Both the position numbers and the translations under genes were made by a program. Shown in pieces: positions 17,393 to 64,000 of a stretch of 64,000 nt of DNA. Within the stretch, counting starts at the first letter, position 1. Every line of letters begins with the position of its first letter. This DNA comes from an uncultured bacterium (GTDB lineage Bacteria > Bipolaricaulota > Bipolaricaulia > RBG-16-55-9 > DRJF01): NCBI GenBank assembly GCA_913053845.1, contig CAJXGD010000005.1, positions 2,239 through 66,238 of the forward strand, given 5' to 3'. The notes beneath the pieces are model-generated. The model saw only the letters and a list, made by a program, of their open reading frames with translations. It was not told the origin of the DNA and made no database searches.

Positions 17393-17524
17393 TCAGTTGC
17401 CACCCTTTCTCCAGCCCATGCAGGAGGGAATTCTGACCCCTCGATCTCAACAAGTTCATAGTCAGGCTAGCTTGCCTCATTGGATAATGATTATAAGCGC
17501 TTATAAGCGCTTCGTCCAGCGGAG

Positions 17525-49993: not shown

Positions 49994-50208
49994 CTCACCT
50001 CACTTTCGCTGCTAGTTGGGCAGCGAGCCCAGTATAGTAAATCGGAGATGAACCCACGGTGAATCGGAGATGAACATGCAGTCATGGCAATCCGCCATCA
50101 CCGTGGCCTGGCTCCAACTCCTCATGACAAGGCCTCCCGGCGGCGTTGTCCCAGTAAGTCCATTTTACTCAGTCGGCCAGACCTAGTAGTATACTGGCAG
50201 CGCGAGAT

Positions 50209-50401
50209 ATGGACCTACTCAGTTGGATCACCGCGGTCTTCGTCCAATACGGCTATTGGGTTATCTTTTTCGGCGTGATGCTGGAGAACGCTGGCATCCC
50301 TCTGCCGGGCGAGACGGTCCTACTGGCAGCGGCTTTCTTCGCCTGCCAGGGGCACTTCAATCTGGTTATCGTCATCGCTGTGGCTGCCGTAGGCGCAGTG
50401 T
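50209..50401 (+). pseudogene. Duplicated 5' fragment of the dedA gene (first 64 codons plus promoter region), truncated
   Basis: 50164-50401 is about 85-90 % identical to 51146-51382. It encodes MDLLSWITAVFVQYGYWVIFFGVMLENAGIPLPGET…AVGAV, then diverges into the 36-bp repeat copy 2. Confidence 0.6.
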
Positions 50402-50680
50402 TCGCAGACTGTACTTCGACAAAGAGCCCACTTGCAAACGCCAGATCAGTCTCGGCTGCAGCGCGGTCAAGTGCAGCGCCTGGTTAGACATGTAGCTCTG
50501 GTGAGCTTGACCCGACCCCCCGGCTCGAAAGCCGATGTTGAAGGTAAGAAATCCAGGAACGAGTGACAAGCCGATGCTCCTGAGCTCTGTTCGACAACAG
50601 AGGCCGACAATTCGAGCAAGGGGCGAGCCCATTGCTCGTGTGATTCGATTCACCAGACGAGAGTAGGTTTGTGCTTTCAT
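50372..50680 (-). CDS. Hypothetical 103-aa protein
   Basis: ATG 50680 preceded by an AGGAGGTG RBS: MKAQTYSRLVNRITRAMGSPLARIVGLCCRTELRSIGL… No recognised family. Confidence 0.3.
   Translation of the reverse strand: MKAQTYSRLVNRITRAMGSPLARIVGLCCRTELRSIGLSLVPGFLTFNIGFRAGGSGQAHQSYMSNQALHLTALQPRLIWRLQVGSLSKYSLRTLRLRQPQR
50410..50445. repeat. 36-bp direct repeat, copy 2
   Basis: tgtacttcgacaaagagcccacttgcaaacgccaga. Confidence 0.7.
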
Positions 50681-50912: not shown

Positions 50913-51189
50913 AATCAAGCACTCAAGGCCTATAGAGGGCAAGCCGCTCTCCCAGGTGGCCCATCCGCCCCGCCCACTTGAGCCATATCCATAGGTTGTG
51001 TAACATCACCGCGATCCCCAGCAGTAGCAAGCGCAGCCCCACCCGCCGCTACGCAGTGCGTGCTCGTGCCTGTTCCTACACCCGGTGGTTGCTCTCGATC
51101 CCGAACCGCCTGCGGTACTTTCCCCCCAAGTGAGTGCAAGAAAGTTCTTTACTCAGTCAGCTAGCCCTGGTATACTGGCGGCGCGAGAT

Positions 51190-52497
51190 ATGGATCTACT
51201 CAGTTGGATCACTGCGGCCTTTGTCCAGTACGGCTATTGGGTCGTCTTCTTAGGTGTCATGCTGGAGAACGCCGGCATCCCCTTGCCGGGGGAGACGATC
51301 CTGCTGGCGGCGGCTTTCTTCGCCTACCAGGGGCACTTCAATCTGGTTATCGTCATCGCTGTGGCCGCCGTAGGCGCAGTGCTCGGTGACAACGCCGGCT
51401 ACTGGATCGGTCGCCGCGGCGGGAGATCGCTGCTCGAGCGCTACGGAGGTTATCTGCTCCTGAACGCGAAGCGACTAGCTGGCTTGGAGCGCTTTTTCGA
51501 GCGTTACGGCGCCAAGGCGGTCTTCTTCGCCCGCTTCGTCACTGGATTTCGCGTCTTTACCGCCCTCTTCGCCGGAGCCGGGCAGATGCCCTGGCCGAAG
51601 TTTGTGTTCTATAATGCCGCCGGTGCGCTCATCTGGAGCATTACCATGGGGTCCTTGGGCTATCTTTTCGGCTACAGCTGGGAGGCACTGGCCCATTGGC
51701 TGGGGCGTGGCAGCTTGGTCGCCGGGGCGGCGCTGCTGCTCATCTTTGCGCTTGTCTGGATTCGCCGTCGCCTGCCGGCCTGGCAACGTGCACTCGATGG
51801 CTGGCTGCCCCGCACCCTGGGCCTGCGCGAGCTGCTGATCAGCTTCGCCACTCTGCTCAGCTTGGGGCTCTTCTCCAAAGTAGCTCAGGACGTGGCAGCC
51901 AACGAGTCGCAGCGCTTCGACCTGACTATCTTACAGACCATCCACCGGGATCTGCCCGCTGGTTGGGAGTCGCTGATGAAGGCCATCACTGCTCTGGGGT
52001 CGTTTAAAAATCTCGGCGGACTTTTGATCATCATCCTGCTAGTCCTGCTCTGGCGGCGGCGCTGGAGGATCGCGCGATTTCTGGCCGTCACCGGTCTGCT
52101 CACCCCAGTTTTTATCGAGGGGCTCAAGCTGGCTTTCCATCGGGCTCGTCCCCATCTCTGGCCCGCACCATTCGAAGCTTCGTACAGCTTTCCCTCTGGC
52201 CACGCGCTGGGCTCGCTGGTCATCTACGGTGTGCTGGCCTATCTGGTCGACAAGACCTGGCCGCGCTGGCGGCCGGCCATCTGGAGCGTCTACCTGGTGC
52301 TGGTGTTGACGATCGGCTTCAGCCGACTATATCTGGGTGTGCACTGGCCTACCGACATCTTGGGTGGTTGGGCCGCCGGAGGACTGCTGCTCTTCGGGCT
52401 GATCTACTGGCGCGAGGGACGCTATCGCCTGCCGGCGCTGGTTTGGCTTGAGCTGCGCAAGTTGTGGAACCGAGTAGGGACGAATAGCCGTAGCTGA
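51190..52497 (+). CDS. DedA (VTT/SNARE-associated) domain fused to a PAP2 phosphatase domain
   Basis: Start placed at ATG 51190 (MDLLSWITAAFVQYGYW…), 36 codons into the longer ORF from 51085. N-terminal DedA segment (…DNAGYWIGRRGG…). C-terminal PAP2 motifs KLAFHRARP…SFPSGHA…SRLYLGVHWPTD. Confidence 0.8.
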   Translation: MDLLSWITAAFVQYGYWVVFLGVMLENAGIPLPGETILLAAAFFAYQGHFNLVIVIAVAAVGAVLGDNAGYWIGRRGGRSLLERYGGYLLLNAKRLAGLERFFERYGAKAVFFARFVTGFRVFTALFAGAGQMPWPKFVFYNAAGALIWSITMGSLGYLFGYSWEALAHWLGRGSLVAGAALLLIFALVWIRRRLPAWQRALDGWLPRTLGLRELLISFATLLSLGLFSKVAQDVAANESQRFDLTILQTIHRDLPAGWESLMKAITALGSFKNLGGLLIIILLVLLWRRRWRIARFLAVTGLLTPVFIEGLKLAFHRARPHLWPAPFEASYSFPSGHALGSLVIYGVLAYLVDKTWPRWRPAIWSVYLVLVLTIGFSRLYLGVHWPTDILGGWAAGGLLLFGLIYWREGRYRLPALVWLELRKLWNRVGTNSRS

Positions 52498-52533: not shown

Positions 52534-52562
52534 TTGACAGCAGGAAAAATCTTTGCTAAAGT
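52534..52562 (+). promoter_or_regulatory. Putative sigma70-type promoter of the dynamin/Ehr operon (TTGACA-N17-TAAAGT)
   Basis: TTGACA at 52534-39, 17-nt spacer, TAAAGT at 52557-62. A 150-nt leader follows, with a G/C hairpin just before the ATG at 52711. Confidence 0.4.
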
Positions 52563-52710
52563 TTAGGCCAATCCAGCGTGATGGAGTCCACAAGCAAGTG
52601 CCCTAGCGGGCTAATGACTCCTACCCAGGTGAATAACCTCTGGTAGGAGCGAGCCGGCATAGGGTATCCCTAGCTAGTGCTAGAAGACCCCTGCCAGGGA
52701 AGGGGTTTCT

Positions 52711-54534
52711 ATGGACCATAGCCAGCAAGATTCAATGGCCCAGGCGGTGCTCAGCCGGCAAGAGAGGAAGGCCGACGCGGGGCTCAAATCTCTCCTGGAG
52801 CAGAGTTTAATAATCCTTAACCAGCTCGGTCCGGAGTTCACCACCGACGGTGAAAACCTGCTGGCCTTACAGTCGCGTCTGCTGGCTGACCGCTTTCAGT
52901 TGGCCGTGCTGGGCCAGTTCAAACGGGGCAAGAGCACGCTGCTCAACGCGCTGCTCGGCGAGGAGCTCCTGCCCACCTCCGTCCTGCCTCTCACCGCTAT
53001 TCCTACTTTCTTGCAGTGGGGTCCCAGACTCCGCGCCCGGGTCGTCTATCAGGATGGTCGCTCGGCAGAAGAGTTCTGCGGAGAGGTACCCGCTGAGCTG
53101 GCGGCCTTTTTGGCGAAGTTCGTCACCGAGGAGGTCAATCCCCGGAACCGCTTGGGCATCTCGCAGGTGGAGGTCTTCCATCCGGCTCCCCTGCTGAAGG
53201 GTGTAGTGCTGATCGACACGCCGGGCATCGGCTCGACCCTGCGGCATAATACGGAGACCACCCTGAGCTTCTTGCCCCAGTGCGATGCGGCCCTGTTCGT
53301 CGTATCGGCCGATCCGCCGATCACCGAGGTCGAAGTGAAGTTCCTCCAGGCCATTCTGCCCCAGGTGGCTCGGCTCTTCGTCGTGCTGAACAAGATAGAT
53401 TACTTGAGAGAGACGGAGCGCAAGACCGCGCTGAATTTTCTCGCCCAGGTGCTGAACCAGGAGGTGGGGCTTAAGGGGGAGATCCCGATCTTCTCCGTCT
53501 CGGCGCGCCAGGGGCTTGAGGCCCGCAGCTCTGGGGATAGCCGGCGCTGGTCCCAGAGCGGTGTGGAAGCTCTCGAACGCTACCTACTGGACTTCCTGGC
53601 CTATGACAGATCTCGGGCGCTCAAGCAAGCCCTAGCGCAGAAGGTCGCCGACATCCTCGCCGACGTCTTGATGCGACTGGAGATCTCGATTCGCTCGCTG
53701 CAGTTGCCGTTGACAGAGCTGGAAGAGCGCTTGCAGCTTTTCCAGCAACAGCTCCAGGAGGCAGAAGCCCAGCGCATCATCGCCGCTGACCTGCTGCAGG
53801 GAGATCAGCGGCGCTTGGCCGCCCGTCTCGAGGAGCAGGCCGAGAGCTTGCGCCGAGGGGCCCGGGATCATCTTGGGGAGATCGCCAAGAGAGAACTGGC
53901 CCGGCAGGGCGATCAGCTCGATGAAGGTGCTGTAGAGCGCGTCTTAGCTGAGGCGATCCCGGCCTTCTTCGCCGGGCAGCTCGAAGCGCTCTCGGGGGAG
54001 TTCGCGCAGCAGGTGGCCGAGACGCTGCGCCCTCACGAACAGCGGGCTGATGAGCTAGTTGAGGCCATACGCCGCGGGGCGGCGGAGCTCTTTGAAGTGC
54101 CCTATCGCGCGCCGCAGAGCGTCCGTGCCTTCGAGGTGCGCCGCCGGCCATACTGGGTGACTCAACGGCCGGATGCCTCTTTAACCTCGATCTCTGCCGG
54201 CCTGGCGGAGCGGCTGTTGCCTGCCCACCTGCACCGCGTGCGTGCGGCAAAACGGCTAATGGCTCAGGTCGAGTCACTGGTGCTGCAGAACGTGGAGAAC
54301 CTGCGTTGGGCGACCCGGCAGAACCTGGATCAGGCCTTCCGTCGCTTCGCCGCTAGCCTGGAAGAGCGCCTCCAGGAGACGATCGCCGCCACCCAGGGGG
54401 CCATTCAAGCGGCCTGGACCAAACGCCAGGAGAGCGCTCCGGCCGTCTCCGCCGAGGTCAAGCGCCTGGAGTCGGTGGCCGCAGAGCTGCGCCAGGTCCA
54501 AGCTCGACTGGAAAAGGCAAACTTATGGAGCTGA
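52711..54534 (+). CDS. Bacterial dynamin-like GTPase
   Basis: G1 GQFKRGKSTLLNALLG. G3 VLIDTPGIGS. G4 LNKID. Long coiled-coil stalk. 607 aa. Confidence 0.8.
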   Translation: MDHSQQDSMAQAVLSRQERKADAGLKSLLEQSLIILNQLGPEFTTDGENLLALQSRLLADRFQLAVLGQFKRGKSTLLNALLGEELLPTSVLPLTAIPTFLQWGPRLRARVVYQDGRSAEEFCGEVPAELAAFLAKFVTEEVNPRNRLGISQVEVFHPAPLLKGVVLIDTPGIGSTLRHNTETTLSFLPQCDAALFVVSADPPITEVEVKFLQAILPQVARLFVVLNKIDYLRETERKTALNFLAQVLNQEVGLKGEIPIFSVSARQGLEARSSGDSRRWSQSGVEALERYLLDFLAYDRSRALKQALAQKVADILADVLMRLEISIRSLQLPLTELEERLQLFQQQLQEAEAQRIIAADLLQGDQRRLAARLEEQAESLRRGARDHLGEIAKRELARQGDQLDEGAVERVLAEAIPAFFAGQLEALSGEFAQQVAETLRPHEQRADELVEAIRRGAAELFEVPYRAPQSVRAFEVRRRPYWVTQRPDASLTSISAGLAERLLPAHLHRVRAAKRLMAQVESLVLQNVENLRWATRQNLDQAFRRFAASLEERLQETIAATQGAIQAAWTKRQESAPAVSAEVKRLESVAAELRQVQARLEKANLWS

Positions 54535-54959
54535 GCGAGGGCGATCGTTCAGAGGTGAACCTGCGGCACCGCCGTGTGATTCGCCTAAATCTGCTCATCT
54601 TGGAGGAGACGATGGCCGAGGTCGAGCGGCTGATCGGCGCTGAAGGAGAGGGGATCCTGCGGCGACGGCGCAACCCGCTGAGCACCGCCACGCGCCAGGA
54701 GCTCTTGGACCGGATCGAGCAGGTGCGCCGAACATTGGTCGAGCTGAAGGATTCCTTCGGCTTTGCGGTCGAAGAGCAGGATGTGACGCGGATGATCCGC
54801 GCGCTGCTCTCCCATCAATGGACGGTGCTCTGCGACACTGAATCGCGCCGGCTGCGGGGTTATGGGGAGCCGGCGCCGGAGTTGGCGGCGCGGCTAGATC
54901 CCTCAATTGCCAAGTTGATCCGGCTCGTCGAAGGGATGGAAGCGTGCCTGGTGAGGTGA
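54525..54959 (+). CDS. Hypothetical 144-aa protein (translationally coupled to the dynamin gene)
   Basis: Overlaps the dynamin stop by 10 nt. Predicted helical, no motif. Confidence 0.4.
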   Translation: MELSEGDRSEVNLRHRRVIRLNLLILEETMAEVERLIGAEGEGILRRRRNPLSTATRQELLDRIEQVRRTLVELKDSFGFAVEEQDVTRMIRALLSHQWTVLCDTESRRLRGYGEPAPELAARLDPSIAKLIRLVEGMEACLVR

Positions 54960-54963
54960 GCTG

Positions 54964-55959
54964 ATGGGACAAAGTGTGAGCAGGGAGGTCGATCTCATGC
55001 CATGTCTCTTCCGCGAGCAGGCGCTGGACGAGGCCGGCCGGGCGGTCTATCACTGCCGGGCGGGAGGAGACTTCGTGCTGGGAACCGTGGGAAGTTTGGC
55101 CGTCCAGCAGATCTGTGGGAGCTGTCTCGTGCCGGCGGAGTATGCGCCGGAGCGCCAGCCCTGTCTGTACCTGGTGCCGCTGCGGGTATTTGGGTCAGCA
55201 GGAACCCCAACCTTCCTGCTCTGCCGCTGGTTTTACCACAGTGGGCCGCGCAGCTGGGTGCACAGTGCTGAGCAGCAGTGTCCTTGTCCTCACTGGTTTC
55301 CCCATCCAGGGAGACAGCACTCGCCGGCGATCGAGGCGATGAACGCGGGGGTGATTCGGGACGCGCTGGCGCTCTACCGAGAAAGGGAGGCACTCCTCAG
55401 CGCGCTGGGCACCCCAGAGGGCGGTTGCCCGATCTGTCAGCGGGTGAGCTGCAAGTCAAGCTCGTTCCTGAACGGTTTGAGCGCTGCTGAGCGGACGCAC
55501 CTCTGCCAAGCGCACCGCGCTCAGCAGGGGAGTGCTCTGCGCCTACCCTCGCAAGAGGAGCAGTTGCAGCTTTTGGAGGAGGCAGAGCGTGCGCTGGAGC
55601 AACTGGCACAGCAATTGGCACAGCCTGGGCAGTTACCCAATCATCGGATAAATATACCCTTTTGGCTAAAGCGGCACCTGCGGCGTCGGCGGACGAGAGC
55701 TGAGCTGGGGGAGGCGATCTGCCCGGCCTGCACGCGGGAGACTGAATGGATCGCTCCGGCGATGAAGGAATTGATCGGCTTACTGCTGCGTGATCCGGCT
55801 GGACCTCGGCTCTATACGCACTCCGCCGGCCTGTGCGCCAACCATTTCGGTCAGCTGCTGGCGCAGGTAGGCCAACCGTGGCATGAACACCTACTCTCTC
55901 TGCAGCGGCAGGCGCTCGCGCAACAAAGGGCCAGGCTGGAGCAGCTGCAGCGCGGCTGA
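54964..55959 (+). CDS. Cys-rich protein with repeated CPxC…LCxxH modules
   Basis: CGSC, CPCPH, CPICQ…(21 aa)…LCQAH, and CPACT…(32 aa)…LCANH. 331 aa. Starts 5 nt after the previous stop. Confidence 0.5.
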   Translation: MGQSVSREVDLMPCLFREQALDEAGRAVYHCRAGGDFVLGTVGSLAVQQICGSCLVPAEYAPERQPCLYLVPLRVFGSAGTPTFLLCRWFYHSGPRSWVHSAEQQCPCPHWFPHPGRQHSPAIEAMNAGVIRDALALYREREALLSALGTPEGGCPICQRVSCKSSSFLNGLSAAERTHLCQAHRAQQGSALRLPSQEEQLQLLEEAERALEQLAQQLAQPGQLPNHRINIPFWLKRHLRRRRTRAELGEAICPACTRETEWIAPAMKELIGLLLRDPAGPRLYTHSAGLCANHFGQLLAQVGQPWHEHLLSLQRQALAQQRARLEQLQRG

Positions 55960-55969
55960 GGCACACATA

Positions 55970-56920
55970 ATGACCACACGAATCCTCTACAACTTGCTCC
56001 AAGTCGCGGTCGTGATGACCTTTGCCCCCCTGATGGCCGGTGTGCTGGCCAAACTCAAGGAGATGGTGCAGTCCAGGCGTGGGCCGAGCGTCTTCCAGCC
56101 CTACCGGGATCTGTGGAAGCTCTTCCACAAGGATGAGGTCATCCCTGAGGAGAGCTCCTGGATCTTTCGGGTGACGCCCTATATCGTGTTCGTCACACCC
56201 ATCTTTGTGACACTGCTCATCCCCGTGCTCACCAGCTACCCGCTCTTCTTCGCCTTTATGGGCGACATGCTCGGCGTGGGGTTCGTCTTGGCGCTGGGCG
56301 GGTTCTTCGCGGCACTGGCTGCGGTGGACACGGCCAACCCCTACGGCCCAATGGGAGCCAGTCGCACGCGCATGGTGAGCTTCTTGGCCGAGCCGGTCTT
56401 CATGATCGTCTTCTTCACCGTCTCCTTCGTGGCCGGCTCCACCATCCCCTACATCGTGCAGCAGAGCTGGGTGACCCCTCTCGCAAATTTCTTTGAGCCG
56501 GCGCACGTGCTGCTGCTGCTCGCGTTCTTCATGCTGATTACCGCCGAGACTGGGCGCATCCCCGTGGACAACCCCTCGGGCCACTTTGAGCTGGCTATGA
56601 TTGACGAGTCCAAAGGACTGGAGTATTCAGGTCAAGGCGCGGCACTGATGAAGTGGGGCGGTTGGATGAAGTTCTTCGTGTTGGTCTGCATCTATCTCAA
56701 CGTGCTGGTCACGCCCTGGGGCCTGGCGGGCGGCCAGGCAGCGGGCGAGGTATTTCTGGCAATCCCGCTGGTGCTGCTCAAGATATTGGCCTTCGTGCTC
56801 GTGCTGGTGGTGATCGAGTCGTCGCTGGCCAAGCTGCGTCTCTTTCGCATCAGCGAATTTCTCGGCGCGGCGTTTGTCACCGCAGTGGCGGCGATGATCG
56901 CCCAATTGTTCGCGCTCTAA
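55970..56920 (+). CDS. NuoH/HyfC(HycD)-like membrane subunit of an energy-converting hydrogenase-related complex
   Basis: MTTRILYNLLQVAVVMTFAPLMAGVLAKLKEMVQSRRGPSVFQPYRDLWKLF is the NuoH/HycD signature. Eight TM helices. Confidence 0.8.
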   Translation: MTTRILYNLLQVAVVMTFAPLMAGVLAKLKEMVQSRRGPSVFQPYRDLWKLFHKDEVIPEESSWIFRVTPYIVFVTPIFVTLLIPVLTSYPLFFAFMGDMLGVGFVLALGGFFAALAAVDTANPYGPMGASRTRMVSFLAEPVFMIVFFTVSFVAGSTIPYIVQQSWVTPLANFFEPAHVLLLLAFFMLITAETGRIPVDNPSGHFELAMIDESKGLEYSGQGAALMKWGGWMKFFVLVCIYLNVLVTPWGLAGGQAAGEVFLAIPLVLLKILAFVLVLVVIESSLAKLRLFRISEFLGAAFVTAVAAMIAQLFAL

Positions 56921-56938: not shown

Positions 56939-57634
56939 ATGTCGCAAGGGTTCGAGCCGCTGTTGAGCGCACTGAATGCCCTGGCTGGAGGGCTCTTCCT
57001 GCTGTCGGCCTTCGGGATGGTGGCCACGCGCCAGGTGCTGGGATGTCTGCGCTTCTTCATCGCCCAGTCGCTGCTACTGGCCGCCAGCGCTTTTCTGCTA
57101 GGAGCCGCTCCTCTCTCGGCCCACCTGATCGCCGTGGGCCTGCTGACTATAATTACCAAGTCCTGGTTGTTGCCCTGGCTGCTGCGGCGCATGGTGCGCC
57201 AGGAGGTCTACACCCGGCGCGAGATCACCCAAGCGGTCAACATCCCCAGCTCGCTGCTCATCGCCTTGGGCCTGGTGCTGGGAGCCTATTTCCTGAGCGC
57301 TCCTTGGCTGCCGGCCGGGGCGGCTGCGGGTGCCGGTTTCGTAAGGATCAACCTGCCGATCGGCCTGGCCGGCCTGCTGCTGGGAGCTTACACCCTGGCG
57401 GTGCGTCGCGAGGCGCTGCCGCAGCTCTTGGGCCTGCTGGCCATGGAGAACGGGGCCTTCTTCGCCGGGATCGCTGTCGCGCCGGGGTTGTCGCTTATCG
57501 CCGAGCTGGCCGTGGCCTTCGACGTGCTCGTCTTGGCCTTTGTCCTGGGCGTGCTCACCCGCATGATCCATGAGCGAACCGGCAGCACCGAGGTCGGTCG
57601 GCTGGCCGCACTCAAGGAGGAGCCCTTCCGATGA
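56939..57634 (+). CDS. HyfE-like small membrane subunit
   Basis: 231 aa, about seven TM helices. Its position and size correspond to HyfE/MbhD-type subunits. Confidence 0.65.
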   Translation: MSQGFEPLLSALNALAGGLFLLSAFGMVATRQVLGCLRFFIAQSLLLAASAFLLGAAPLSAHLIAVGLLTIITKSWLLPWLLRRMVRQEVYTRREITQAVNIPSSLLIALGLVLGAYFLSAPWLPAGAAAGAGFVRINLPIGLAGLLLGAYTLAVRREALPQLLGLLAMENGAFFAGIAVAPGLSLIAELAVAFDVLVLAFVLGVLTRMIHERTGSTEVGRLAALKEEPFR

Positions 57635-59073
57635 TCCTGATCGCTATTCTAGCGCTGCCGCTGCTGGCGGCAGCAGTTTGCGGCCTGTCCGGCTCCGAGC
57701 GGTGGTCCCCGCGGGTGACGCTGCTGGCGGCGCTGGCGAACTTGCTGCTGGCCGGAGAGGTAGCGCTGCGGGCGGCCGGCGGAGAGACCATCGTCGCCTT
57801 GCCCCACTGGATCGCCGCCGACGGCCTGAGCGCCTTGATCGCGCTGCTGATCACCGCCGTGGGGACGAGCGCCGCGCTCTTCTCCTGGGGCTATATGGCA
57901 CACTCGACTCAAAAGCCACGGGCACTGCGACTCTACTACGTTAATTTCAACTTGTTCCTCTTTGCCATGCTGGCCGTTCCCCTGCTGGCCGAGCCCAATC
58001 TGGTCTGGATCGCCGTGGAGCTGACCACGCTCTTCTCGGTATTATTAGTCTCTTTCGCTGACACCCATGACGCCCTGGAGGCGGCCTGGAAGTACGCGGT
58101 GCTCACCTTGTCCGGGGCGGCGATCGCCCTCTTCGGCTTCTTGCTGCTCTTTTGGGCCTGGCAGACCGCCGGGGGCGGGCCGTATAGCTGGGCCACTCTG
58201 CGCGCCGCGGCCGGCGCTATGCCACCTCGGCTGCTGCAGGCGGCCTTCTTGCTCATCCTGGTGGGCTTTGGGGCCAAGGTGGGCCTGGTGCCACTGCACA
58301 CCTGGCTGCCCGATGCCCATAGCCAGGCCCCCACACCGGTCTGCGCTCTGCTCTCCGGCGTGGAGACCTCAGCAGTGCTCTACGTGATATTGCGCCTGTT
58401 GCCCCTGCTGGGCCCCGCCAGCCAAGGGCGTGCCTGGGCGCTGGCCTTCGGCCTGCTCTCGGCGGGCGTGGCCTCATTCTTGCTGCTGCGGGTGCGCGAC
58501 TATAAGCGACTTTTCGCCTTTTCTACTGTAGAACAGATGGGGATCGTGCTGGCCGCTGCCGGGCTGGGCTCCGGCGCGGCTAGCTATGCCGCCCTGCTCC
58601 AAATCGTAGCTCATGCGCTCGGCAAATCATTCTGCTTCTACGCCGCCGGCTCGGCGGCGCTCTTGAGCGGGACCACCGAGATCGCCGGGGTGCGCGGTCT
58701 GCTGCGCAGCTCGCCGCTCGGCGGTATCGCCCTGCTGCTGGGAGGTCTGACCATCGCCGGGGCGCCCCCCTTGGCGCTCTTTTTGAGCGAGTTTTCCATC
58801 CTGAAGGCCGGCCTGTCCGGCGGGCAATACCTGGCAGTAGCGCTGCTCACGCTGTTCATTGCAGTAGCTTTCTTCGGCATCTTACGCCACATACTGCCCA
58901 TGGTCTTCGGTAAGCCCCTGCCGCAATCTGTCAACAGGAAACTGCCCCGCAGTGTTGTGCTGACACTGCTGCTGGCCGCGCTGCCGCTCTTCGTGCTGGG
59001 GGTCTATCTCCCGGAGCAGCTTAGCGCGCTATTACGCGTTGCGGCCGCGGCTCTGACCCACTTGGCGAGGTGA
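57631..59073 (+). CDS. NuoN/NuoM/HyfF-like antiporter-type membrane subunit
   Basis: 480 aa with 14 TM helices. Contains the conserved TWLPDAHSQAPTPV motif (…LHTWLPDAHSQAPTPVCALLSG). Confidence 0.8.
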   Translation: MILIAILALPLLAAAVCGLSGSERWSPRVTLLAALANLLLAGEVALRAAGGETIVALPHWIAADGLSALIALLITAVGTSAALFSWGYMAHSTQKPRALRLYYVNFNLFLFAMLAVPLLAEPNLVWIAVELTTLFSVLLVSFADTHDALEAAWKYAVLTLSGAAIALFGFLLLFWAWQTAGGGPYSWATLRAAAGAMPPRLLQAAFLLILVGFGAKVGLVPLHTWLPDAHSQAPTPVCALLSGVETSAVLYVILRLLPLLGPASQGRAWALAFGLLSAGVASFLLLRVRDYKRLFAFSTVEQMGIVLAAAGLGSGAASYAALLQIVAHALGKSFCFYAAGSAALLSGTTEIAGVRGLLRSSPLGGIALLLGGLTIAGAPPLALFLSEFSILKAGLSGGQYLAVALLTLFIAVAFFGILRHILPMVFGKPLPQSVNRKLPRSVVLTLLLAALPLFVLGVYLPEQLSALLRVAAAALTHLAR

Positions 59074-59080
59074 TCGCATC

Positions 59081-60661
59081 ATGAAAGATATGCAAGCGCT
59101 CTGCGAGCAGGCCCGGCAGCTTTGGCCCAGCGAGGTCCAGGCTCTCAGGATCGACGAGGCCGGCCGGCTGGGCGAGCTGCGCTGCGCTCCCCAGACGCTG
59201 CCTGAGCTGGCGGACTGGTTGTTCAACGAGTTGAGCTATCAGTTTGCCGGGCTGATCGTCGAAGAGGCTGGGCGGCACTGGGAGCTGCGCTACCTATTTT
59301 ACGGTCAGGCCGGCCGGCTCTATCTCTTGAGCGAGCAACCCTTGGCCGAGAGGAGTTTTCCCAGCCTCAGCACCAGGGTGCATGCCGCCGACTGGCAGGA
59401 GCGTGAGGCCGAAGACCTGTTCGGATTGGTCTTCAGCGGCCATCCCCGTTTGGGAGATTTTGTTCTGCATGATGACCTCTGGCCGGAGGGACTGGAGCCC
59501 ATGCGCCGCTCATTCACCGGCACCCGGCCGGTGAGCGACCGCCAGGCGCGCACCGATTGGCGACCGAGACGGATCGTGCAGGCCCCAGGGGCGTTCGTCA
59601 TGCCCATTGGACCCATCTATGGGGGAGCCACCGAGTCGGCCCACTTCCTGCTGGAGACGGTCGGTGAAGAGGTGATTCGCGCCTTCCCACGGCTTTTCTA
59701 TCAATACCGTGGGGTCGAAAAACGCGCCGAGGGTGCGCCGTTCTCCCAGGGCTTGCTGCTGGCCGAGCGCTTCGCTGCCCGCAGTGCTTTCGCCCACGCG
59801 CTGGCCTACTCGCGCGCCATTGAGGCTTTGAGTGCGGTTGAGCTGCCCCCGCGCGCCCGGCAGTTGCGGGTCTTCTTCGCCGAGCTGGAGCGCTTCCGGC
59901 ATCACCTGGGCACCATTGAGGGGATCTGCACCTCGACCGGGCTGGCCGTGGCCGCCAGTCAAGCAGCCCTGCTGGAAGAGGAGGCGCTGAGGCTCTCCGG
60001 CGCGCTGGCGGGCCATCGTTATCTCTTCGGCCTGGCAGCGCCCGGCGGATTGGCCCACGATGTGCCGGCGGCGGCCTGCCGCGAGGCGGTCAGTCAGGCC
60101 CAGGCTATCCGGCGACGCGCGCAGGAGCTGCACCAGCGCCTGCGCCGCTCCTCCAGCTTCCTCGATCGCTTGGAGCAAGTGGGCCTCATCTCCCCGGAGC
60201 AGGCCCGCGATCATGGCCTGGTCGGCCCGGTGGCCCGCGCTTCGGGGCTCTCTCGCGATCTGCGGCAGGCACAGCCCTACTCCGGCTATCCATCGTGCTC
60301 ATTTAGAGTTCCCTGTGAGCGGGAAGGGGATGGCTACGCGCGACTGCGGGTCTTCTTCGCCGAGATTGATCAAGCGGTGGAGCTCATGGCTCAAGCGGCG
60401 CAAGATCTGCCGCGCGGCCCGGTCAGGGCAGAGTGCCGGCCGGCGGCAGGAGCGGCGCTGGGCTGGGTCGAGGCTCCGGTGGGTGCGGCCTTCCATTGGG
60501 TCCGTCTGGATGAGAGCGGCCGGATCATGCGCTATCGGCTGATGACGCCGTCCTTTGCCAACTGGCACGGCTTCCACCTGGCCGCCGAGGGCTTTGCCTT
60601 TCAGGATTTTCCGATTATCCTGGCCACCTTTGGGCTGTCGGTGGCCGAGAACGATCGTTAG
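59081..60661 (+). CDS. Fused NuoC-NuoD / HycE-like large subunit lacking the NiFe-binding cysteines
   Basis: The N-terminal roughly 170 aa are NuoC-like (…ELRYLFYG…RVHAADWQEREAEDLFG). The remainder is NuoD/HycE-like. The RxCGxCxxxH site reads GGATESAH. The C-terminal DPCxxCxxH/R site reads GLSVAENDR. Confidence 0.8.
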   Translation: MKDMQALCEQARQLWPSEVQALRIDEAGRLGELRCAPQTLPELADWLFNELSYQFAGLIVEEAGRHWELRYLFYGQAGRLYLLSEQPLAERSFPSLSTRVHAADWQEREAEDLFGLVFSGHPRLGDFVLHDDLWPEGLEPMRRSFTGTRPVSDRQARTDWRPRRIVQAPGAFVMPIGPIYGGATESAHFLLETVGEEVIRAFPRLFYQYRGVEKRAEGAPFSQGLLLAERFAARSAFAHALAYSRAIEALSAVELPPRARQLRVFFAELERFRHHLGTIEGICTSTGLAVAASQAALLEEEALRLSGALAGHRYLFGLAAPGGLAHDVPAAACREAVSQAQAIRRRAQELHQRLRRSSSFLDRLEQVGLISPEQARDHGLVGPVARASGLSRDLRQAQPYSGYPSCSFRVPCEREGDGYARLRVFFAEIDQAVELMAQAAQDLPRGPVRAECRPAAGAALGWVEAPVGAAFHWVRLDESGRIMRYRLMTPSFANWHGFHLAAEGFAFQDFPIILATFGLSVAENDR

Positions 60662-60677: not shown

Positions 60678-61448
60678 ATGAGCGAATGGGTCTTGCAAGG
60701 TCTGCGCACCGGGATCAAAACCACGCACTATCCCGACGCCAGAGAGCGCGCGCCGGGCGTCTCACCCGGTCGGCCGGTCGGGGGCAGTTATCCCGCAGAT
60801 CAAGCTGAAGCGCTGCTGGCCCGCTGTCCCACCGGCGCGCTGCGCTATCAGGATGGGCAGGTGATCATTGACTATCGGCGTTGCGTGCATTGCTTCCGCT
60901 GCGCTCGGGAGCTGAAAACGCCCCTCACCTGGGAGATGGATTACGAGTGGGCTGGGGCCAATACGCCAGGATTGACCGGGCCTTTCGGCCGCTCGGTGCA
61001 TATTCTGGTAGTGGACACCGGGGACTGCGGTGCCTGCCTCAATGAGGTGAAGCAGCTCAATAACCCATACTACAACATGCACCGATTGGGCTTCTTCATC
61101 ACGCCCACCCCCCGACAGGCGGACATTCTGCTCGTCGTCGGAGCGCTGAGCGCTCCGATGCGCGAGCCGCTCCTACAAGCCTACCAGGCGATGCCCGACC
61201 CCAAGCGGGTGGTGGCCGTGGGAGCCTGCGCCCTGTCAGGCAGCCTATTTGGGCCCAGCTTCGCCTGCGGCACGGGCGTGAGCGAGCTGCTCCCGGTGGC
61301 GGTAGAGGTGCCGGGCCAGCCGCCGCCGCCGCTGGCCATCCTGCACGGCCTGCTGGTCGCTGTGGGACGCCGGCCGGCCGTCCCGCTCAGCTCACCGAAC
61401 TTGCCTATGCCCATACCTGTAATAGAGGAAGTGCACAGCCGGCCATGA
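60678..61448 (+). CDS. Single-cluster ferredoxin-like module fused to a NuoB/HycG-like small subunit
   Basis: ATG 60678 after a GGAGAGGAGG RBS. N-terminus CPTGAL…RRCVHCFRCA (one 4Fe-4S binding motif). Then DTGDCGAC…AVGACALSG…FACGTG (NuoB-type cluster ligands). Confidence 0.75.
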   Translation: MSEWVLQGLRTGIKTTHYPDARERAPGVSPGRPVGGSYPADQAEALLARCPTGALRYQDGQVIIDYRRCVHCFRCARELKTPLTWEMDYEWAGANTPGLTGPFGRSVHILVVDTGDCGACLNEVKQLNNPYYNMHRLGFFITPTPRQADILLVVGALSAPMREPLLQAYQAMPDPKRVVAVGACALSGSLFGPSFACGTGVSELLPVAVEVPGQPPPPLAILHGLLVAVGRRPAVPLSSPNLPMPIPVIEEVHSRP

Positions 61449-63589
61449 CCCTTGCCACCTTGATCGGGATCTTTTTCGCCCTCTGCGGCGCCGGCCTGCT
61501 GGCTACCCTGGCGCTCCCGGAGCGTCAGGCGCCGCGCGTGCTGGCCTGGAGCGGGGCGCTGGCTTCGTTCTTTATCCTCTGGGCTGGCGCGGCTGCCCTG
61601 CTGGGCGGAGAGAGTTTCCGGCTCTCACTCTGGACGCTGCCCCTGCTGGGACGATTGAGCTTGGGTCTGGACCGGATGGGAGGGCTCTTCCTGCTGATCG
61701 GTGGGCTGGTGACGCTGCCCGTCTCCGTCTTCTCCCTGGGCTACTTGCAGCGCTATCAGGGCAAGTATAACCTGCGCGCTTTCGGGCTGCTCTATCTGGC
61801 GCTGCTGGCCTCACTGGCGCTGATCCCCTTGGCCGCGGACGCCTTCACCTTCCTGATCGCCTGGGAGGCGATGTCGCTGCTCAGCTTCTTCTTGGTCGCC
61901 TTCGAGCATGAGCGCCAGAGAGCGGTCCAAGCGGGCTATCTGATGCTGGCCGTAGGTGAGCTGGGCACGCTGGCCGTCGCCTTGGCCTTCCTGCTGCTGG
62001 CAGGCGCCGCCGGAGGGCTAGATTTTCCCGCGCTGCGAGCGTCGTCCGTCGGGCTGGGCGCGACCATGCGCTGGACCATCTTCCTGCTCTCGTTCTTCGG
62101 ATTTGGGGTCAAAGCCGGACTGGTGCCGGTCAACTTCTGGCTGCCGCGCGCCCACCCGGAGGCCCCGGGCAACGTCTCCGCGCTGCTCTCCGCCGTGATC
62201 CTCAACCTGGGTATCTACGGCATCTTGCGCTTCAATGGTGATCTCTTGCCGATCAACTCAGTCGGGCCGGGCCTGGTCGTCCTGGCGATCGGTGTGCTCT
62301 CCGCGCTGGTGGGCATTCTCTATGCCACCATCGAGAACGATCTGAAAACTCTGTTGGCCCACAGCTCGATCGAGAACATGGGCATCATCACCGCCAGCCT
62401 GGGCGCGGGGTTTATTTTCACCGCTACCGGCCATCCGGTGCCGGCGGCCATCGCCTTCTTAGCGGCTCTCTATCATTTGGTCAATCATTCGGTCTATAAG
62501 GCGTTGCTCTTTCTGGGGGCCGGGACGCTCGATGCCCAACTGGGCACCCGTGATCTCGACCGTTTGGGCGGCCTGCTGAAGCGTATGCCGTGGCTGGGGC
62601 TGTTCATGCTGATCGGGGCCTTGTCCATCGCCGGGCTGCCACCGCTGGGCGGCTTCGTCAGCGAGTGGTTGAGCTTACAGGTGATGCTGCGCAGCGTCGA
62701 GCTGGCCTCCGTAGGGATCAAAGTCGCCTTCGCCTTGGCCGGGGTGGGACTGGCGCTCACCCTGGCGCTGGCGGTCACCTGCTTTGTGAAGACTTTTGCG
62801 ATGGGCTTCTTAGGCTTGGCACGCTCTGAGGTAGCCGAAGCAGCACGGGAGGGGCCGCGCTCGGCGCTGATCCCTCTGGGCTTTCTGGCCGGTCTCTGCC
62901 TGCTGTTGGGACTGGGGGCCACCTACGTCATTCCGGCGCTGGACGGTGTCGTCAGGCCCTTAGCGGGGACCAGCGCAGCCGCAGCCTTGGTGCCACCGTT
63001 CTTCGCCACCCATCCCAAGCAGGCTGAGCTGCCACCGGCCTTCGCCGCCGATTTTCATGATTTGGGCGCTCAACTGGGCAAGAATTTTCTGCCGGGGCGA
63101 GGGCTGGTAGTGCTGCATCGCGGTGGAGCGAAGAACCCGGTAATATTCGCCATGTCCACCGCCTACACTTTTGTGGTGCTCCTGCTGCTGCTGCTCGTCG
63201 TCTATCTGGCTGTGCACTGGGGTCCGGCCTGGCGGCGTCAGGTGACCTACCAGCCGCGCTGGGCAGGGGGGCTGAAAAAGCTCTTGCCGGAGATGACCTA
63301 TACCGCCACGGGCTTTGCCAATCCGGTGCGCGTGATCTTTGAGGCGATCTTCCGGCCCACGGTCGTCGAGAACACCCAAGACGCGGCGCGAGAGCACTTT
63401 CGCACGCTGATCCGGCGGGAGCACCGGCAAGTCCATCTGATCGACCGATTGGTGCTGAAGCCGATCGCCTGGGGTGCTTTGGCCATCGCGGACGGCCTGG
63501 CGCGGATGCATCATGGGCGGATCAACGCCTACGCCGGCTATGGGCTCCTGGTGTTGCTGATCGTCTTGATTCTGGCCCGACTGCTCTAG
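61445..63589 (+). CDS. NuoL/HyfB-like antiporter-type membrane subunit with a long C-terminal extension
   Basis: 714 aa. NFWLPRAHPEAP motif. Sixteen or more TM helices. Start overlaps the previous stop (ATGA). Confidence 0.8.
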   Translation: MTLATLIGIFFALCGAGLLATLALPERQAPRVLAWSGALASFFILWAGAAALLGGESFRLSLWTLPLLGRLSLGLDRMGGLFLLIGGLVTLPVSVFSLGYLQRYQGKYNLRAFGLLYLALLASLALIPLAADAFTFLIAWEAMSLLSFFLVAFEHERQRAVQAGYLMLAVGELGTLAVALAFLLLAGAAGGLDFPALRASSVGLGATMRWTIFLLSFFGFGVKAGLVPVNFWLPRAHPEAPGNVSALLSAVILNLGIYGILRFNGDLLPINSVGPGLVVLAIGVLSALVGILYATIENDLKTLLAHSSIENMGIITASLGAGFIFTATGHPVPAAIAFLAALYHLVNHSVYKALLFLGAGTLDAQLGTRDLDRLGGLLKRMPWLGLFMLIGALSIAGLPPLGGFVSEWLSLQVMLRSVELASVGIKVAFALAGVGLALTLALAVTCFVKTFAMGFLGLARSEVAEAAREGPRSALIPLGFLAGLCLLLGLGATYVIPALDGVVRPLAGTSAAAALVPPFFATHPKQAELPPAFAADFHDLGAQLGKNFLPGRGLVVLHRGGAKNPVIFAMSTAYTFVVLLLLLLVVYLAVHWGPAWRRQVTYQPRWAGGLKKLLPEMTYTATGFANPVRVIFEAIFRPTVVENTQDAAREHFRTLIRREHRQVHLIDRLVLKPIAWGALAIADGLARMHHGRINAYAGYGLLVLLIVLILARLL

Positions 63590-63607: not shown

Positions 63608-64000
63608 ATGGCGCTCTTTACCGGAGAGTTGCAGCGGGCGCTGGCCGCGCCGGGCTGTCCGCTCTGTCGGCTGGTGCGCCATCAGGAGGAGGCCTGGATC
63701 TGGCATACGCTCTATGAGTTCACCGGTGACCCGGGGGTGCGCAGTCGGCTAGATGCCAGCTATGGCCTCTGTCATGAGCACGCGCATCTGCTGCGCCGGG
63801 TGCTGACCGGCCACCGGCTGCTGGGCGGCAGCGGGGTAGCGCGCATCTACGAGACGGTGGTGCTCAGATATAGCGAGCAGTTGGCCGCACTCCAGGGGGC
63901 AGGGGGCAGACTGAAGCAGTGGCTGGGCTCTGAGCGCCAGCAGCTAGCCAAGCTGGAGCTCAAGGGTTGTCCGCTCTGCCTGTCCAGTCAGCAGGCAGAG
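63608..64000 (+). CDS. Cys-rich CPxC…LCxxH-module protein (paralog of 54964-55959), 3'-partial at the window end
   Basis: CPLCRLVRHQEE…(36 aa)…LCHEH. A second CPLC sits at the window edge. RBS GGGAGGA. Confidence 0.45.
   Translation, partial: MALFTGELQRALAAPGCPLCRLVRHQEEAWIWHTLYEFTGDPGVRSRLDASYGLCHEHAHLLRRVLTGHRLLGGSGVARIYETVVLRYSEQLAALQGAGGRLKQWLGSERQQLAKLELKGCPLCLSSQQAE

Follow-up and report, generated by a model that had tools for sequence, protein, structure and literature searches.

The gene examined here encodes a 526-residue large subunit and lies in a cluster that runs to the 3′ end of the window, by which we mean the whole stretch of 64,000 nucleotides of bacterial DNA that was analyzed (Table 1). 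The cluster begins with a probable fluoride riboswitch aptamer, followed by genes for a dynamin-like GTPase, a 144-residue protein and a DUF6062-like protein (DUF6062a). Then come NuoH-, HyfE- and HyfF-like membrane subunits, the NuoCD-type large subunit, a ferredoxin–NuoB fusion and a HyfB-like subunit, and the series closes with a second DUF6062-like gene (DUF6062b). Neighboring genes overlap by up to 10 nt or lie up to 19 nt apart, and co-transcription of the cluster is therefore likely. The six genes from the NuoH-like to the HyfB-like subunit form a core, the order of which is strictly conserved in ~80 loci. Homologs of the dynamin-like GTPase adjoin this core in 19–20 of those ~80 loci, and homologs of the 144-residue protein are found next to dynamin genes in loci L015 and L019. 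The translation of DUF6062a contains CxxC...LCxxH motifs. In the public copy of the locus that carries DUF6062b at full length (L087), an unrelated AbiEi-like gene lies 3′ of it.

Table 1. Features of the gene cluster and of the large-subunit gene, with positions in the window
Feature	Position	Strand	Evidence or remark
Sigma-70-like promoter, TTGACA-17 nt-TAAAGT with TG extension	52534..52562	+	10/12 match; 0.1 expected in shuffles
Fluoride riboswitch aptamer (crcB motif, RF01734), slightly weak P1	52568..52630	+	32.6 bits
Candidate expression platform	52617..52710	+	MFE -69.8 kcal/mol, z=-4.35
Dynamin-like GTPase, first gene 3′ of the aptamer	52711..54534	+	Dynamin_N 6.6e-27; weak DynA-type match
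144-aa protein without family	54525..54959	+	10-nt overlap with dynamin gene
Cys-rich DUF6062-like protein (a)	54964..55959	+	PF19538 0.0012, below cut-off
NuoH/HycD-like membrane subunit, EhrB-type	55970..56920	+	NADHdh 3e-34
HyfE-like membrane subunit, EhrC-type	56939..57634	+	hydrogenase 4 membrane subunit 1.3e-14
HyfF/NuoN-like antiporter-type subunit, EhrD-type	57631..59073	+	Proton_antipo_M 5.9e-46, HyfF 3.8e-98
Large subunit, NuoC+HycE/NuoD-like fusion without NiFe cysteines, EhrL-type	59081..60661	+	526 aa
β1–β2 loop PIYGGATESAHFLLE (aa 178-192)	59612..59656	+	aligned to HycE PLHVTSDEPGHF
RxCGxCxxxH remnant, ERFAARSAFAH (aa 229-239)	59765..59797	+	Cys to A232, S235
DPCxxCxxR remnant, GLSVAENDR	60632..60658	+	Cys to S520, E523; no C-terminal extension
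Small subunit, EhrS-type: one-cluster ferredoxin-like N-terminal domain + NuoB/HycG domain	60678..61448	+	
HyfB/HycC/NuoL-like antiporter-type subunit, EhrA-type	61445..63589	+	HyfB 1.5e-164, HycC 6.9e-59
DUF6062-like gene (b), truncated by window end	63608..64000	+	full 248-aa form with PF19538 match in public copy L087

The first-pass annotation of this DNA had described the large subunit as a HycE/NuoD-like protein with a NuoC-like N-terminal fusion, while allowing that its frame or start might be wrong. The fusion is borne out by a Complex1_30kDa (NuoC) match at residues 34–148 (Pfam, 2.4e-15), alongside a Complex1_49kDa (NuoD/HycE) match (3.3e-45). The reading frame begins and ends exactly where the annotation had placed it, and conservation among 81 orthologs dispels the concern about a frame error. 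With the NiFeSe_Hases profile of Pfam the protein scores 20.1 bits, under the 25.8-bit cut-off, and its scores with the NCBIfam NuoD equivalogs fall below the respective cut-offs as well (214.5 versus 360 bits for NF004739; 180 versus 459 for TIGR01962). The closest solved relative is Escherichia coli HycE (7z0s_E, 1.5e-63), which is also the top Foldseek match of the AF2 model (TM 0.82); model confidence is low at the pocket segments, residues 125–207 and 520–526.

The NiFe ligand positions were mapped by residue-wise alignment to HycE and by a MAFFT alignment with four-Cys hydrogenases. In both alignments all four positions are substituted, in agreement with the earlier claim that both cysteine pairs have been lost. 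The HycE motif R-V-C-G-I-C-G-F-A-H corresponds to R230-F-A232-A-R-S235-A-F-A-H239, in which the arginine and the histidine are retained and both cysteines are exchanged. At the other end, D-P-C-Y-S-C-T-D-R of HycE corresponds to G518-L-S520-V-A-E523-N-D-R526, and the stop codon follows R526 directly, so the C-terminal motif had been read correctly. The counterpart of RxCGxCxxxH, however, had been sought in the wrong place: the segment proposed for it, PIYGGATESAHFLLE, is the β1–β2 loop, which keeps the conserved residues Glu185 and His188 (present in 79/81 and 73/81 orthologs, respectively). In the alignments to NuoD chains, the quinone ligands His38 and Tyr87 of complex I (Thermus thermophilus numbering) are replaced by T184 and A233, and these two positions hold Thr or Ala and Ala or Gly across the 81 orthologs. 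Cys283 is invariant among the orthologs; from the pairwise alignment, it probably lies adjacent to the NuoD histidine that contacts cluster N2.

Judged from the alignments, loss of the NiFe cysteines is a fixed trait of the family. Across the 81 orthologs, which span many phyla and belong to a family with matches in 482 species-level genomes, the four ligand positions read A59/S11/C7/N4, T66/S14/A1, S81 and E81, so that each protein keeps none or one of the four cysteines. Ser520, Glu523 and Asp525 are each present in 81/81, every ortholog ends at the position of residue 526, and invariance reaches at least 97% at 135 of the 526 positions. Nothing except the absent cysteines speaks for the decay of a hydrogenase gene or for an artifact of sequencing or frame, and the conservation of the same substitutions rules both out; the reading frame is intact, and the identical protein is found on five public contigs. 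A recent loss confined to the source lineage was also considered and rejected: the closest homologs carry a precomputed NiFeSe_Hases Pfam match, yet all of them lack the cysteines on alignment.

The Ehr name, for energy-converting or Ech-hydrogenase-related complexes, dates to about 2004–2013. It denotes complexes with a group-4-hydrogenase-type large subunit that lacks the NiFe cysteines, and papers published from 2019 to 2023 report their function as unknown throughout (PMC6349859, PMC10284858, PMC7894505, PMC10432482). The first-pass annotation had assigned the protein to this group, and the gene context fits: a Cys-less large subunit of group-4 type is encoded together with NuoH-, HyfE- and NuoB-like subunits and two antiporter-like ones. 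We regard it as virtually certain that the protein is the large subunit of a complex of Ehr type and descends from group-4 membrane-bound [NiFe] hydrogenases. Because the metal site has been permanently replaced by Ala/Ser, Thr/Ser, Ser and Glu, the complex cannot be a [NiFe] hydrogenase. No hyp maturation genes were found within the 64-kb window. Ehr comprises more than one clade. A second Cys-less clade has the C-terminus NLSY(A/S)GNDL, a small subunit without a ferredoxin domain and the gene order NuoB-HyfB-NuoH-HyfE-HyfF-NuoCD; in the single genome context of this clade that was examined, which can be indicative only, we found no fluoride aptamer.

The small subunit (residue numbers count from Met60678) contains seven conserved cysteines, C50, C69, C72 and C75, then C117, C120 and C184, of which six are invariant and the seventh is present in 79/81 orthologs; they fit two Fe–S clusters. 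In the window, the proximal cluster has lost its canonical fourth ligand, as PGQPP (Q214) stands in place of PGCPP. A cysteine occupies this position in 14/81 orthologs, and Asn, Gln, His, Ser, Phe and other residues do so in 67/81. An alternative cysteine, C197, is present in 46/81 and never together with the canonical one (0 proteins have both; Fisher p=1.3e-6, a value not corrected for phylogeny), and 21/81 have neither. On this sequence evidence the fourth ligand is evolutionarily labile, and the proximal cluster may serve as the catalytic site, may be altered or may be missing. In the fold search, the match of the small subunit is limited to its NuoB half, and AF2 confidence is low at residues 185–198. 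In the NuoH-like subunit, 159 of 316 positions, many charged residues among them, are invariant in 71 orthologs, as is the NuoH-type coupling loop. The key residues of both antiporter-like subunits are invariant too: E130, K216, K332 and E387 in the HyfF-like protein, and E141, K223, K352 and E407 in the HyfB-like protein.

The lead toward a riboswitch came from the families of the flanking genes. The aptamer in the window is absent from an Rfam scan at the gathering threshold and was recovered in E-value mode: its score is 1.4 bits short of the 34-bit cut-off, with a window-wide E-value of 3.6e-5. Its pseudoknot, GGAGU/ACUCC, is paired at 5/5 positions, P2 at 4/4 and P1 at 3/4, and it fits a strict aptamer pattern that has 0 matches in shuffled sequences. 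In an alignment of 14 aptamers, the pseudoknot is 100% paired with three compensatory pairs; the window itself supplies one of these sequences, so its possession of all invariant nucleotides is by construction. The promoter ends 6 nt 5′ of the aptamer match. The candidate expression platform comprises a hairpin that would compete for the 3′ strand of the pseudoknot, followed by a G+C hairpin and UUUCU just 5′ of the start codon; in the minimum-free-energy fold, ACUCCUACC is predicted to pair with the downstream GGUAGGAG. We found no canonical terminator in the aptamer leader, and no crcB, eriC or enolase gene within the window.

Each of 27 related loci searched with Rfam contains at least one RF01734 match at or above the gathering score, with 34–57 bits at the orthologous loci, and the strict pattern with its pseudoknot check gives 86 matches in 61/84 sources and 0 in shuffles. 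A same-strand aptamer lies at most 2.6 kb from the NuoH-like gene in 67 of the 68 loci with enough upstream sequence (one of the 67, L072, scores 33.4 bits, slightly below the cut-off), and in 47 cases the NuoH-like gene is the first gene downstream of the aptamer. Locus L056 has the same order as the window, with aptamer, dynamin gene and core. The recurring neighbors of the core are those of the classic fluoride regulon, namely CrcB, DUF190, enolase, a MutS-like protein and USP. We consider it highly probable that the complex is produced from an operon under fluoride-riboswitch control and that a rise in cytoplasmic fluoride therefore turns its production on; such control is evident for the family and probable for the window. 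Riboswitch control here and in ~70 other bacterial lineages suggests that Ehr aids survival of fluoride rather than production of H2. The first-pass statement on the substrate of Ehr still stands, but that interpretation is incomplete rather than wrong, as this clade is nearly always controlled by a fluoride riboswitch. In the literature searched, we found no link of Ehr to fluoride.

'Formate hydrogen lyase' genes have been listed behind crcB-motif RNAs since Weinberg 2010 (PMC2864571) and again in a 2024 review (PMC11139923). As in those lists, the genes at the present loci, which carry the annotation formate hydrogenlyase subunit 5 or Ni,Fe-hydrogenase III, are found directly 3′ of RF01734 aptamers, in the company of crcB, DUF190, enolase and mutS-like genes. 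The literature takes this class for a true formate hydrogenlyase (FHL) and for a shift to fermentation, whereas the proteins at our loci have neither NiFe ligands nor a formate dehydrogenase partner; the true-FHL reading therefore cannot hold for them. On this evidence, one large Ehr clade and the riboswitch-linked 'FHL' genes at the loci examined appear to be the same thing.

What might such a complex do during fluoride stress? The best overall explanation, to which we assign a probability of roughly 0.55, is a redox-driven ion pump, induced by fluoride, that would help to keep pH and membrane potential in balance. Incoming HF lowers the cytoplasmic pH and dissipates the proton-motive force, and expulsion of F- by Fluc/CrcB needs a membrane potential; the pump would expel the proton half of HF and sustain the potential that drives F- export. 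Homeostasis of pH and proton-motive force is a recognized second line of fluoride defense (PMC11139923). The component step, that the six-subunit core is still a redox-driven ion pump with an acceptor other than protons, is one we put forward more tentatively, at somewhat less than even odds. A low-potential donor such as ferredoxin would deliver electrons to a single N6b-like [4Fe–4S] cluster in the N-terminal domain of the small subunit, from where they would pass to the proximal, N2-like cluster. A non-proton acceptor, most plausibly membrane quinone, would be reduced in a remodeled pocket at the NuoD/NuoB/NuoH interface, and H+ (or Na+) would be translocated via the intact NuoH-type coupling loops and the two antiporter-like subunits. 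The seven conserved cysteines of the small subunit, which suit two clusters, the invariant Glu and Lys residues of the antiporter-like subunits, and the invariance of half of the NuoH-like positions speak for a redox-competent pump. Against it count the absence of equivalents of the complex I quinone ligands, the absence nearby of a conserved donor module (Fdh, NuoEFG or HycB), the missing canonical fourth cysteine of the proximal cluster in 67/81 orthologs with no obvious substitute in 21/81, and the uncertainty of AF2 at the pocket segments. The explanation as a whole is further weakened by the sub-threshold window aptamer with its three P1 pairs and by the window's lack of crcB, eriC and enolase genes.

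Two other readings we judge to be unlikely. One is an enzyme similar to the Pyrococcus furiosus MBS complex, in which a proximal [4Fe–4S] cluster held by three fixed cysteines would be the catalytic site for a substrate in the old NiFe pocket, for instance sulfane sulfur or a small molecule that accumulates in fluoride stress, with catalysis coupled to ion pumping. Three invariant cysteines with a labile fourth (Cys in 14/81, other residues in 67/81) recall the three-Cys cluster of MBS, for which a catalytic role has been proposed (PMC7684303). As in MBS, the quinone-binding His/Tyr pair is missing from the large subunit, and the invariant Cys283 would lie near the N2-contacting His position. 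However, the disengaged ligand in MBS is the first cysteine of the N-terminal pair rather than the CPP cysteine, and the 46/81 orthologs with C197, which excludes the canonical cysteine, resemble a relocated ligand more than an open site. MBS also keeps two of the four NiFe cysteines, where the present family keeps none or one, and lacks the proton-relay Glu that this family retains.

The other is a redox-independent transporter, such as an Mrp-like secondary cation/proton antiporter, with the peripheral arm as a structural or regulatory cap. Na+/H+ antiporters rank next after exporters among fluoride-riboswitch genes (PMC11139923), a donor or acceptor module is not encoded, and the fourth cluster ligand varies. 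Yet the seven cluster cysteines are kept in different phyla (six are invariant and one is present in 79/81), the pocket residues E185, R230, H239, C283, S520, E523 and D525 are invariant or nearly so, and the NuoH coupling loop is invariant as well; this constraint exceeds the needs of a passive cap, and Mrp antiporters function without such an arm. The redox-driven pump remains our preferred reading over both.

We think it improbable that the complex is an ordinary respiratory one of ferredoxin:quinone type with no special fluoride link in the source organism, the aptamer being a relic or a chance match. The sub-gathering score, the weakened P1 and the fact that a fluoride exporter gene was not found in the window would fit this, but the window-wide E-value, the correct position and strand, the promoter in front and the perfect pseudoknot argue otherwise, as do the aptamers in 67/68 orthologous loci and the matching gene order in L056. 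Just as improbable, in our estimate, is a putative site in the old NiFe pocket that handles fluoride itself, binding HF or a Mg–fluoride species and expelling or trapping it with redox energy or proton-motive force. The pocket is lined by the hard-ligand residues Ser520, Glu523, Asp525, Thr/Ser235 and Glu185, which are invariant or nearly so. In that reading, it would adjoin a proximal Fe–S cluster with a variable fourth ligand, and the dynamin-like GTPase and the DUF6062 proteins would belong to the same apparatus. If true, this would be the first complex-I-type machine dedicated to halide detoxification.

Very unlikely, finally, is docking of a formate dehydrogenase, whereby the complex would oxidize formate in the manner of formate hydrogenlyase, a role also proposed for the Ehr of Margulisbacteria (PMC6349859). 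The window does contain an FdhA-type gene above the TIGR01591 cut-off (6483–8543, minus strand), and Ehr subunits of Geobacter are more abundant on formate (PMC7894505). That gene, however, is 47 kb from the core and on the opposite strand, no electron-input partner (Fdh, NuoEFG or HycB) is conserved in the ~80 neighborhoods, and without a hydrogenase site the electrons would still need an acceptor.

Many bacteria and archaea of environmental importance carry Ehr complexes, among them nitrifiers, NC10, Acidobacteriota, Verrucomicrobiota and Geobacter. Its role becomes testable with fluoride as inducer and with fluoride tolerance, cytoplasmic pH and membrane potential as phenotypes. In the fluoride field, 'formate hydrogen lyase' has since 2010 been counted with the genes most often under riboswitch control and has been taken for a fermentation shift; the indicated identity of one large Ehr clade with this class corrects an inference driven by annotation. 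It also suggests what may be a missing half of fluoride defense, in which Fluc exports F- and a dedicated pump would export the H+ brought in by HF.

Among known systems, E. coli formate hydrogenlyase (Hyc/Hyf, PDB 7Z0S) provides the best match of the large subunit, of the small subunit (HycG-type, 3.1e-28) and of the HycC/HyfB-like subunit, and shares with the present complex the NuoC-type N-terminal domain, the CxxC-type first cluster motif and the proton-relay Glu. Unlike it, the present complex lacks a NiFe site, a C-terminal extension for maturation by a protease, and HycB, HycF and FdhF; its small subunit is fused to a single-cluster ferredoxin domain and has lost the fourth proximal-cluster cysteine. 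P. furiosus MBS (PDB 6U8Y) is likewise a hydrogenase-derived relative of complex I without H2 chemistry, with a three-Cys proximal cluster and without the complex I quinone-binding His/Tyr (PMC7684303). It differs in its two NiFe cysteines, its 13 subunits against a core of six here, its Mrp-type Na+ module and the identity of the lost cluster ligand, and its large subunit is much less similar (1.5e-30). Complex I and photosynthetic NDH-1 share the core architecture (NuoB, C, D, H and L–N) and the NuoCD fusion (7q5y_B, 7awt_D), and NDH-1 sets a precedent, as ferredoxin feeds it in the absence of NuoEFG; the present complex has only six subunits and lacks the tandem-Cys N2 motif, His38/Tyr87 and separate NuoA, NuoJ, NuoK and NuoI genes. 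The subunit set is that of the Ehr complexes of Geobacter sulfurreducens (GSU0739-45) and comammox Nitrospira, which consist of NuoL-like EhrA, NuoH-like EhrB, HyfE-like EhrC, antiporter-like EhrD, the large subunit EhrL and the small subunit EhrS (PMC7894505, PMC10284858), and a Nitrospira japonica metagenome-assembled genome (L015) has a member of the present clade. The complex is of a known kind, Ehr, and what is new is that its role can now be tested.

The ORF at 59081-60661 (+) lies where the first-pass annotation placed it. It encodes a large subunit of 526 residues that fuses a NuoC-type domain (PF00329, aa 34-148) to a NuoD/HycE-type domain (PF00346, 3.3e-45). Its NiFeSe_Hases Pfam score lies below the cut-off, and it met no NCBIfam equivalog cut-off, the top model being NuoD (214 bits versus 360). 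Among proteins of solved structure, HycE of E. coli (7z0s_E) is nearest in sequence (1.5e-63), and the same chain is the best fold match (TM 0.82) of an AlphaFold model with a pTM of 0.81. The identical database entry is a hypothetical protein from a Candidatus Fraserbacteria MAG. We mapped the cysteines by HMMER alignment to HycE and MAFFT alignment with four-Cys hydrogenases, with concordant results. HycE RVCGICGFAH corresponds to R230-FAARSAFA-H239, where both cysteines are replaced (A232, S235), and DPCYSCTDR corresponds to G518-LSVAEND-R526, where they are replaced by S520 and E523 and followed by the stop codon. Both alignments thus bear out the loss of both NiFe-binding cysteine pairs claimed in the first-pass annotation. 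The C-terminal motif quoted there was in the right place; the N-terminal one, PIYGGATESAHFLLE (aa 178-192), is instead the beta1-beta2 loop, which aligns to HycE PLHVTSDEPGHF and retains the conserved Glu185 and His188. Cys283 is invariant in 81/81 orthologues, and its equivalent is also frequent in true group-4 hydrogenases (LACHFTG in HycE). By alignment it adjoins the position of the NuoD histidine that contacts cluster N2 in complex I, and it may act as a cluster ligand between subunits or as a redox residue.

The substitutions are common to more than 100 database proteins with 58-66% identity to the large subunit. When one genome was scanned for each species, 482 genomes proved to have relatives, the carriers spanning Verrucomicrobiota, Acidobacteriota, Planctomycetota, Nitrospirota, NC10, several proteobacterial classes, Desulfobacterota and others. 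Across 81 orthologues, the four ligand positions hold Ala (59), Ser (11), Cys (7) or Asn (4); Thr (66), Ser (14) or Ala (1); Ser (81); and Glu (81). The protein ends at residue 526 in all 81, and invariance reaches at least 97% at 135 of the 526 positions. Cysteine loss is a fixed trait of the family. Among 50%-identity cluster representatives, the LSVAExDR clade stands apart from another Cys-less clade, which is larger and ends in NLSY(A/S)GNDL, and the closest four-Cys hydrogenases show ~39% identity. In three second-clade loci (L084 3475-11584, L085 and L086), the gene order differs, the small subunit lacks a ferredoxin domain, and genes for an ArsR-type regulator and a pentapeptide-repeat protein lie upstream; a fluoride aptamer was sought in one second-clade context and not found. 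Because these clades are distinct, Ehr comprises more than one clade and is a heterogeneous label.

The N-terminal domain of the small subunit contains C50 and C69-x2-C72-x2-C75 (numbered from Met60678), the ligand set for one cluster of a two-cluster ferredoxin and the equivalent of that of complex I N6b, the cluster adjoining N2. Its NuoB/HycG domain retains C117, C120 and C184, and the canonical PGCPP reads PGQPP. This fourth proximal-cluster position is a cysteine in just 14/81 orthologues. An alternative, C197, which the window has, lies 17 residues upstream of the canonical position in 46/81, and 21 have neither. No orthologue has both (0/81; Fisher p=1.3e-6, uncorrected for phylogeny), and this exclusivity suggests that the ligand has relocated or that the cluster is site-differentiated.

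All loci fetched keep the same order of core genes, and the HyfB-like gene is present in one to three tandem copies. The antiporter-type subunits possess the Glu and Lys residues that line up with key ones in HycC and MbhH, and these do not vary; half of the positions of the NuoH-like subunit are invariant. From their sequences, the membrane subunits look functional. The HyfB-like subunit is doubled in tandem in 14 loci and tripled in one (L047 12687-19411 and 14 others in all), and added pumping modules would alter the ion/electron ratio.

Features of the window
Feature	Coordinates	Strand	Remark
Glutamate synthase GXGXG-domain ORF	2483-3079	-	198 aa
FdhA-type formate dehydrogenase alpha subunit	6483-8543	-	cytoplasmic
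Direct repeat, upstream copy	50189-50409		221 nt
Direct repeat, downstream copy	51170-51390		221 nt
VTT/DedA+PAP2 gene	51085-52497
Fluoride aptamer (RF01734)	52568-52630	+	E-value mode
Dynamin-like GTPase gene	52711-54534	+	starts 80 nt after aptamer
Dynamin-like, 144-aa and DUF6062-like genes	52711-55959, 63608-64000
NuoH/HycD-like subunit	55970-56920	+	profile matches
HyfE-like subunit	56939-57634	+	profile matches
HyfF-like subunit	57631-59073	+	profile matches
Large subunit (NuoC+NuoD/HycE-like)	59081-60661	+	Pfam PF00329, PF00346
Cys283 codon	59927-59929
Small subunit	60678-61448	+	256 aa; profile matches
Small-subunit segment C184..Q214	61227-61319	+	fourth-ligand region
HyfB/HycC-like subunit	61445-63589	+	profile matches

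A gathering-threshold Rfam scan of the window reported two tRNAs only and not RF01734, the fluoride riboswitch (crcB motif). In E-value mode, RF01734 matches at 32.6 bits versus a cut-off of 34 (3.6e-5 for the whole window, 1.7e-7 locally), with P2 and the pseudoknot perfectly paired and three of four P1 pairs formed. A promoter-like TTGACA-17-TAAAGT ends 6 nt 5' of it. In the MFE fold, the 3' pseudoknot strand pairs with a downstream GGUAGGAG (z=-4.35), which would look like a candidate expression platform. The aptamer is followed by the dynamin-like gene, a 144-aa ORF, a Cys-rich DUF6062-like gene, the six-gene core and then another DUF6062-like gene, after which the operon ends in public copies of the locus; neighbouring genes overlap by up to 10 nt or are separated by up to 19 nt. 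The related locus L056 has the same aptamer-dynamin-core order. Fluoride-riboswitch control in the window is probable.

The dynamin-like, 144-aa and DUF6062-like (CPxC...GLCxxH twice) proteins are probably co-transcribed with the core. Genes of these types adjoin it in 19-20 of ~80 loci (among them L001 14673-18655, L017 16560-20987 and L082 15550-20623), sometimes as fusions (Dynamin_N with DUF6062 in L001) and often with their own fluoride aptamer, which would place a membrane-remodelling GTPase in a fluoride response. Elsewhere in the window, the FdhA-type gene (TIGR01591, 784 bits versus a cut-off of 666) lies 47 kb from the Ehr operon on the opposite strand. One copy of an 89%-identical direct repeat, the upstream one, duplicates the start of the VTT/DedA+PAP2 gene (its 5' end) in truncated form and is probably a gene fragment. 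Of the large subunit of glutamate synthase, the 198-aa ORF contains only the C-terminal domain (1.6e-46 to model residues 1348-1479); it is a fragment or else a domain that stands alone.

Clustering the flanking ORFs of ~80 loci into families yielded dynamin-like GTPase (19-20 loci), enolase (19) and DUF190 (17, directly upstream of the core), with metallophosphoesterase, MutS-like ATPases, CrcB and USP also recurring, a set that matches the fluoride-riboswitch regulon. In each of the 27 related loci searched with Rfam, one or more RF01734 matches reached the gathering score. A stringent aptamer pattern that included a test of the pseudoknot matched 86 times, in 61/84 sources, and never in shuffles. 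With both methods combined, a same-strand aptamer lies within 2.6 kb of the NuoH-like gene in 67 of the 68 loci where 400 nt or more precede that gene, including L072, whose aptamer scores slightly below the cut-off (33.4 bits); in the 68th it is on the opposite strand of a divergent intergenic region. In 47 cases, no gene intervenes between the aptamer and the NuoH-like gene. An alignment of 14 aptamers shows 100% pairing of the pseudoknot and compensatory changes at 3/5 of its pairs. The association is not circular, because loci were picked on protein similarity only. The aptamers place the family under fluoride-riboswitch control. Several loci have two or three aptamers; a 21-kb Verrucomicrobiia locus (L004) has four (5817-5883, 14588-14660, 17476-17548 and 20312-20388), heading crcB-DUF190-core, dynamin genes and enolase-side genes in a 'fluoride island'.

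The family has lost the NiFe site and conserves a six-subunit architecture, two cluster-ligand sets and intact pump residues. We infer that the complex is a redox-driven pump for H+ (or Na+) that is induced by fluoride. A low-potential donor would feed electrons through the two clusters to an acceptor other than protons, perhaps quinone, and the pump would offset the acidification that HF causes and maintain the potential behind F- export. The absence of the complex I His/Tyr ligands speaks against a quinone acceptor, and the lability of the fourth cluster ligand argues against simple electron transfer. The cluster might instead catalyse an MBS-like reaction: in P. furiosus MBS, a proximal cluster with three Cys ligands is the proposed catalytic site (PMC7684303). 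A redox-independent antiporter and an FDH-coupled complex are further rivals, as is a remodelled pocket that itself handles fluoride.

Work on the crcB-motif RNA lists 'formate hydrogen lyase' (FHL) among the controlled genes (PMC2864571), and a 2024 review takes riboswitch-linked FHL as a turn to fermentative metabolism (PMC11139923). The proteins described here lack NiFe ligands and a formate dehydrogenase partner and therefore cannot be FHL, which corrects this label in the fluoride literature; none of the papers searched links Ehr to this 'formate hydrogen lyase'. Ehr complexes themselves are already known as hydrogenase relatives of unknown function (PMC6349859, PMC10284858, PMC7894505, PMC10432482). 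The new element is the near-universal fluoride-riboswitch link of this Ehr clade, which offers a testable hypothesis in place of 'function unknown'. The earlier assignment to Ehr is supported by the absent NiFe ligands and by a subunit set that is the same as that named Ehr in Geobacter (PMC7894505). The small subunit, with its variable fourth ligand, recalls P. furiosus MBS and the three Cys ligands of its proximal cluster, but the ligand lost is not the same one.
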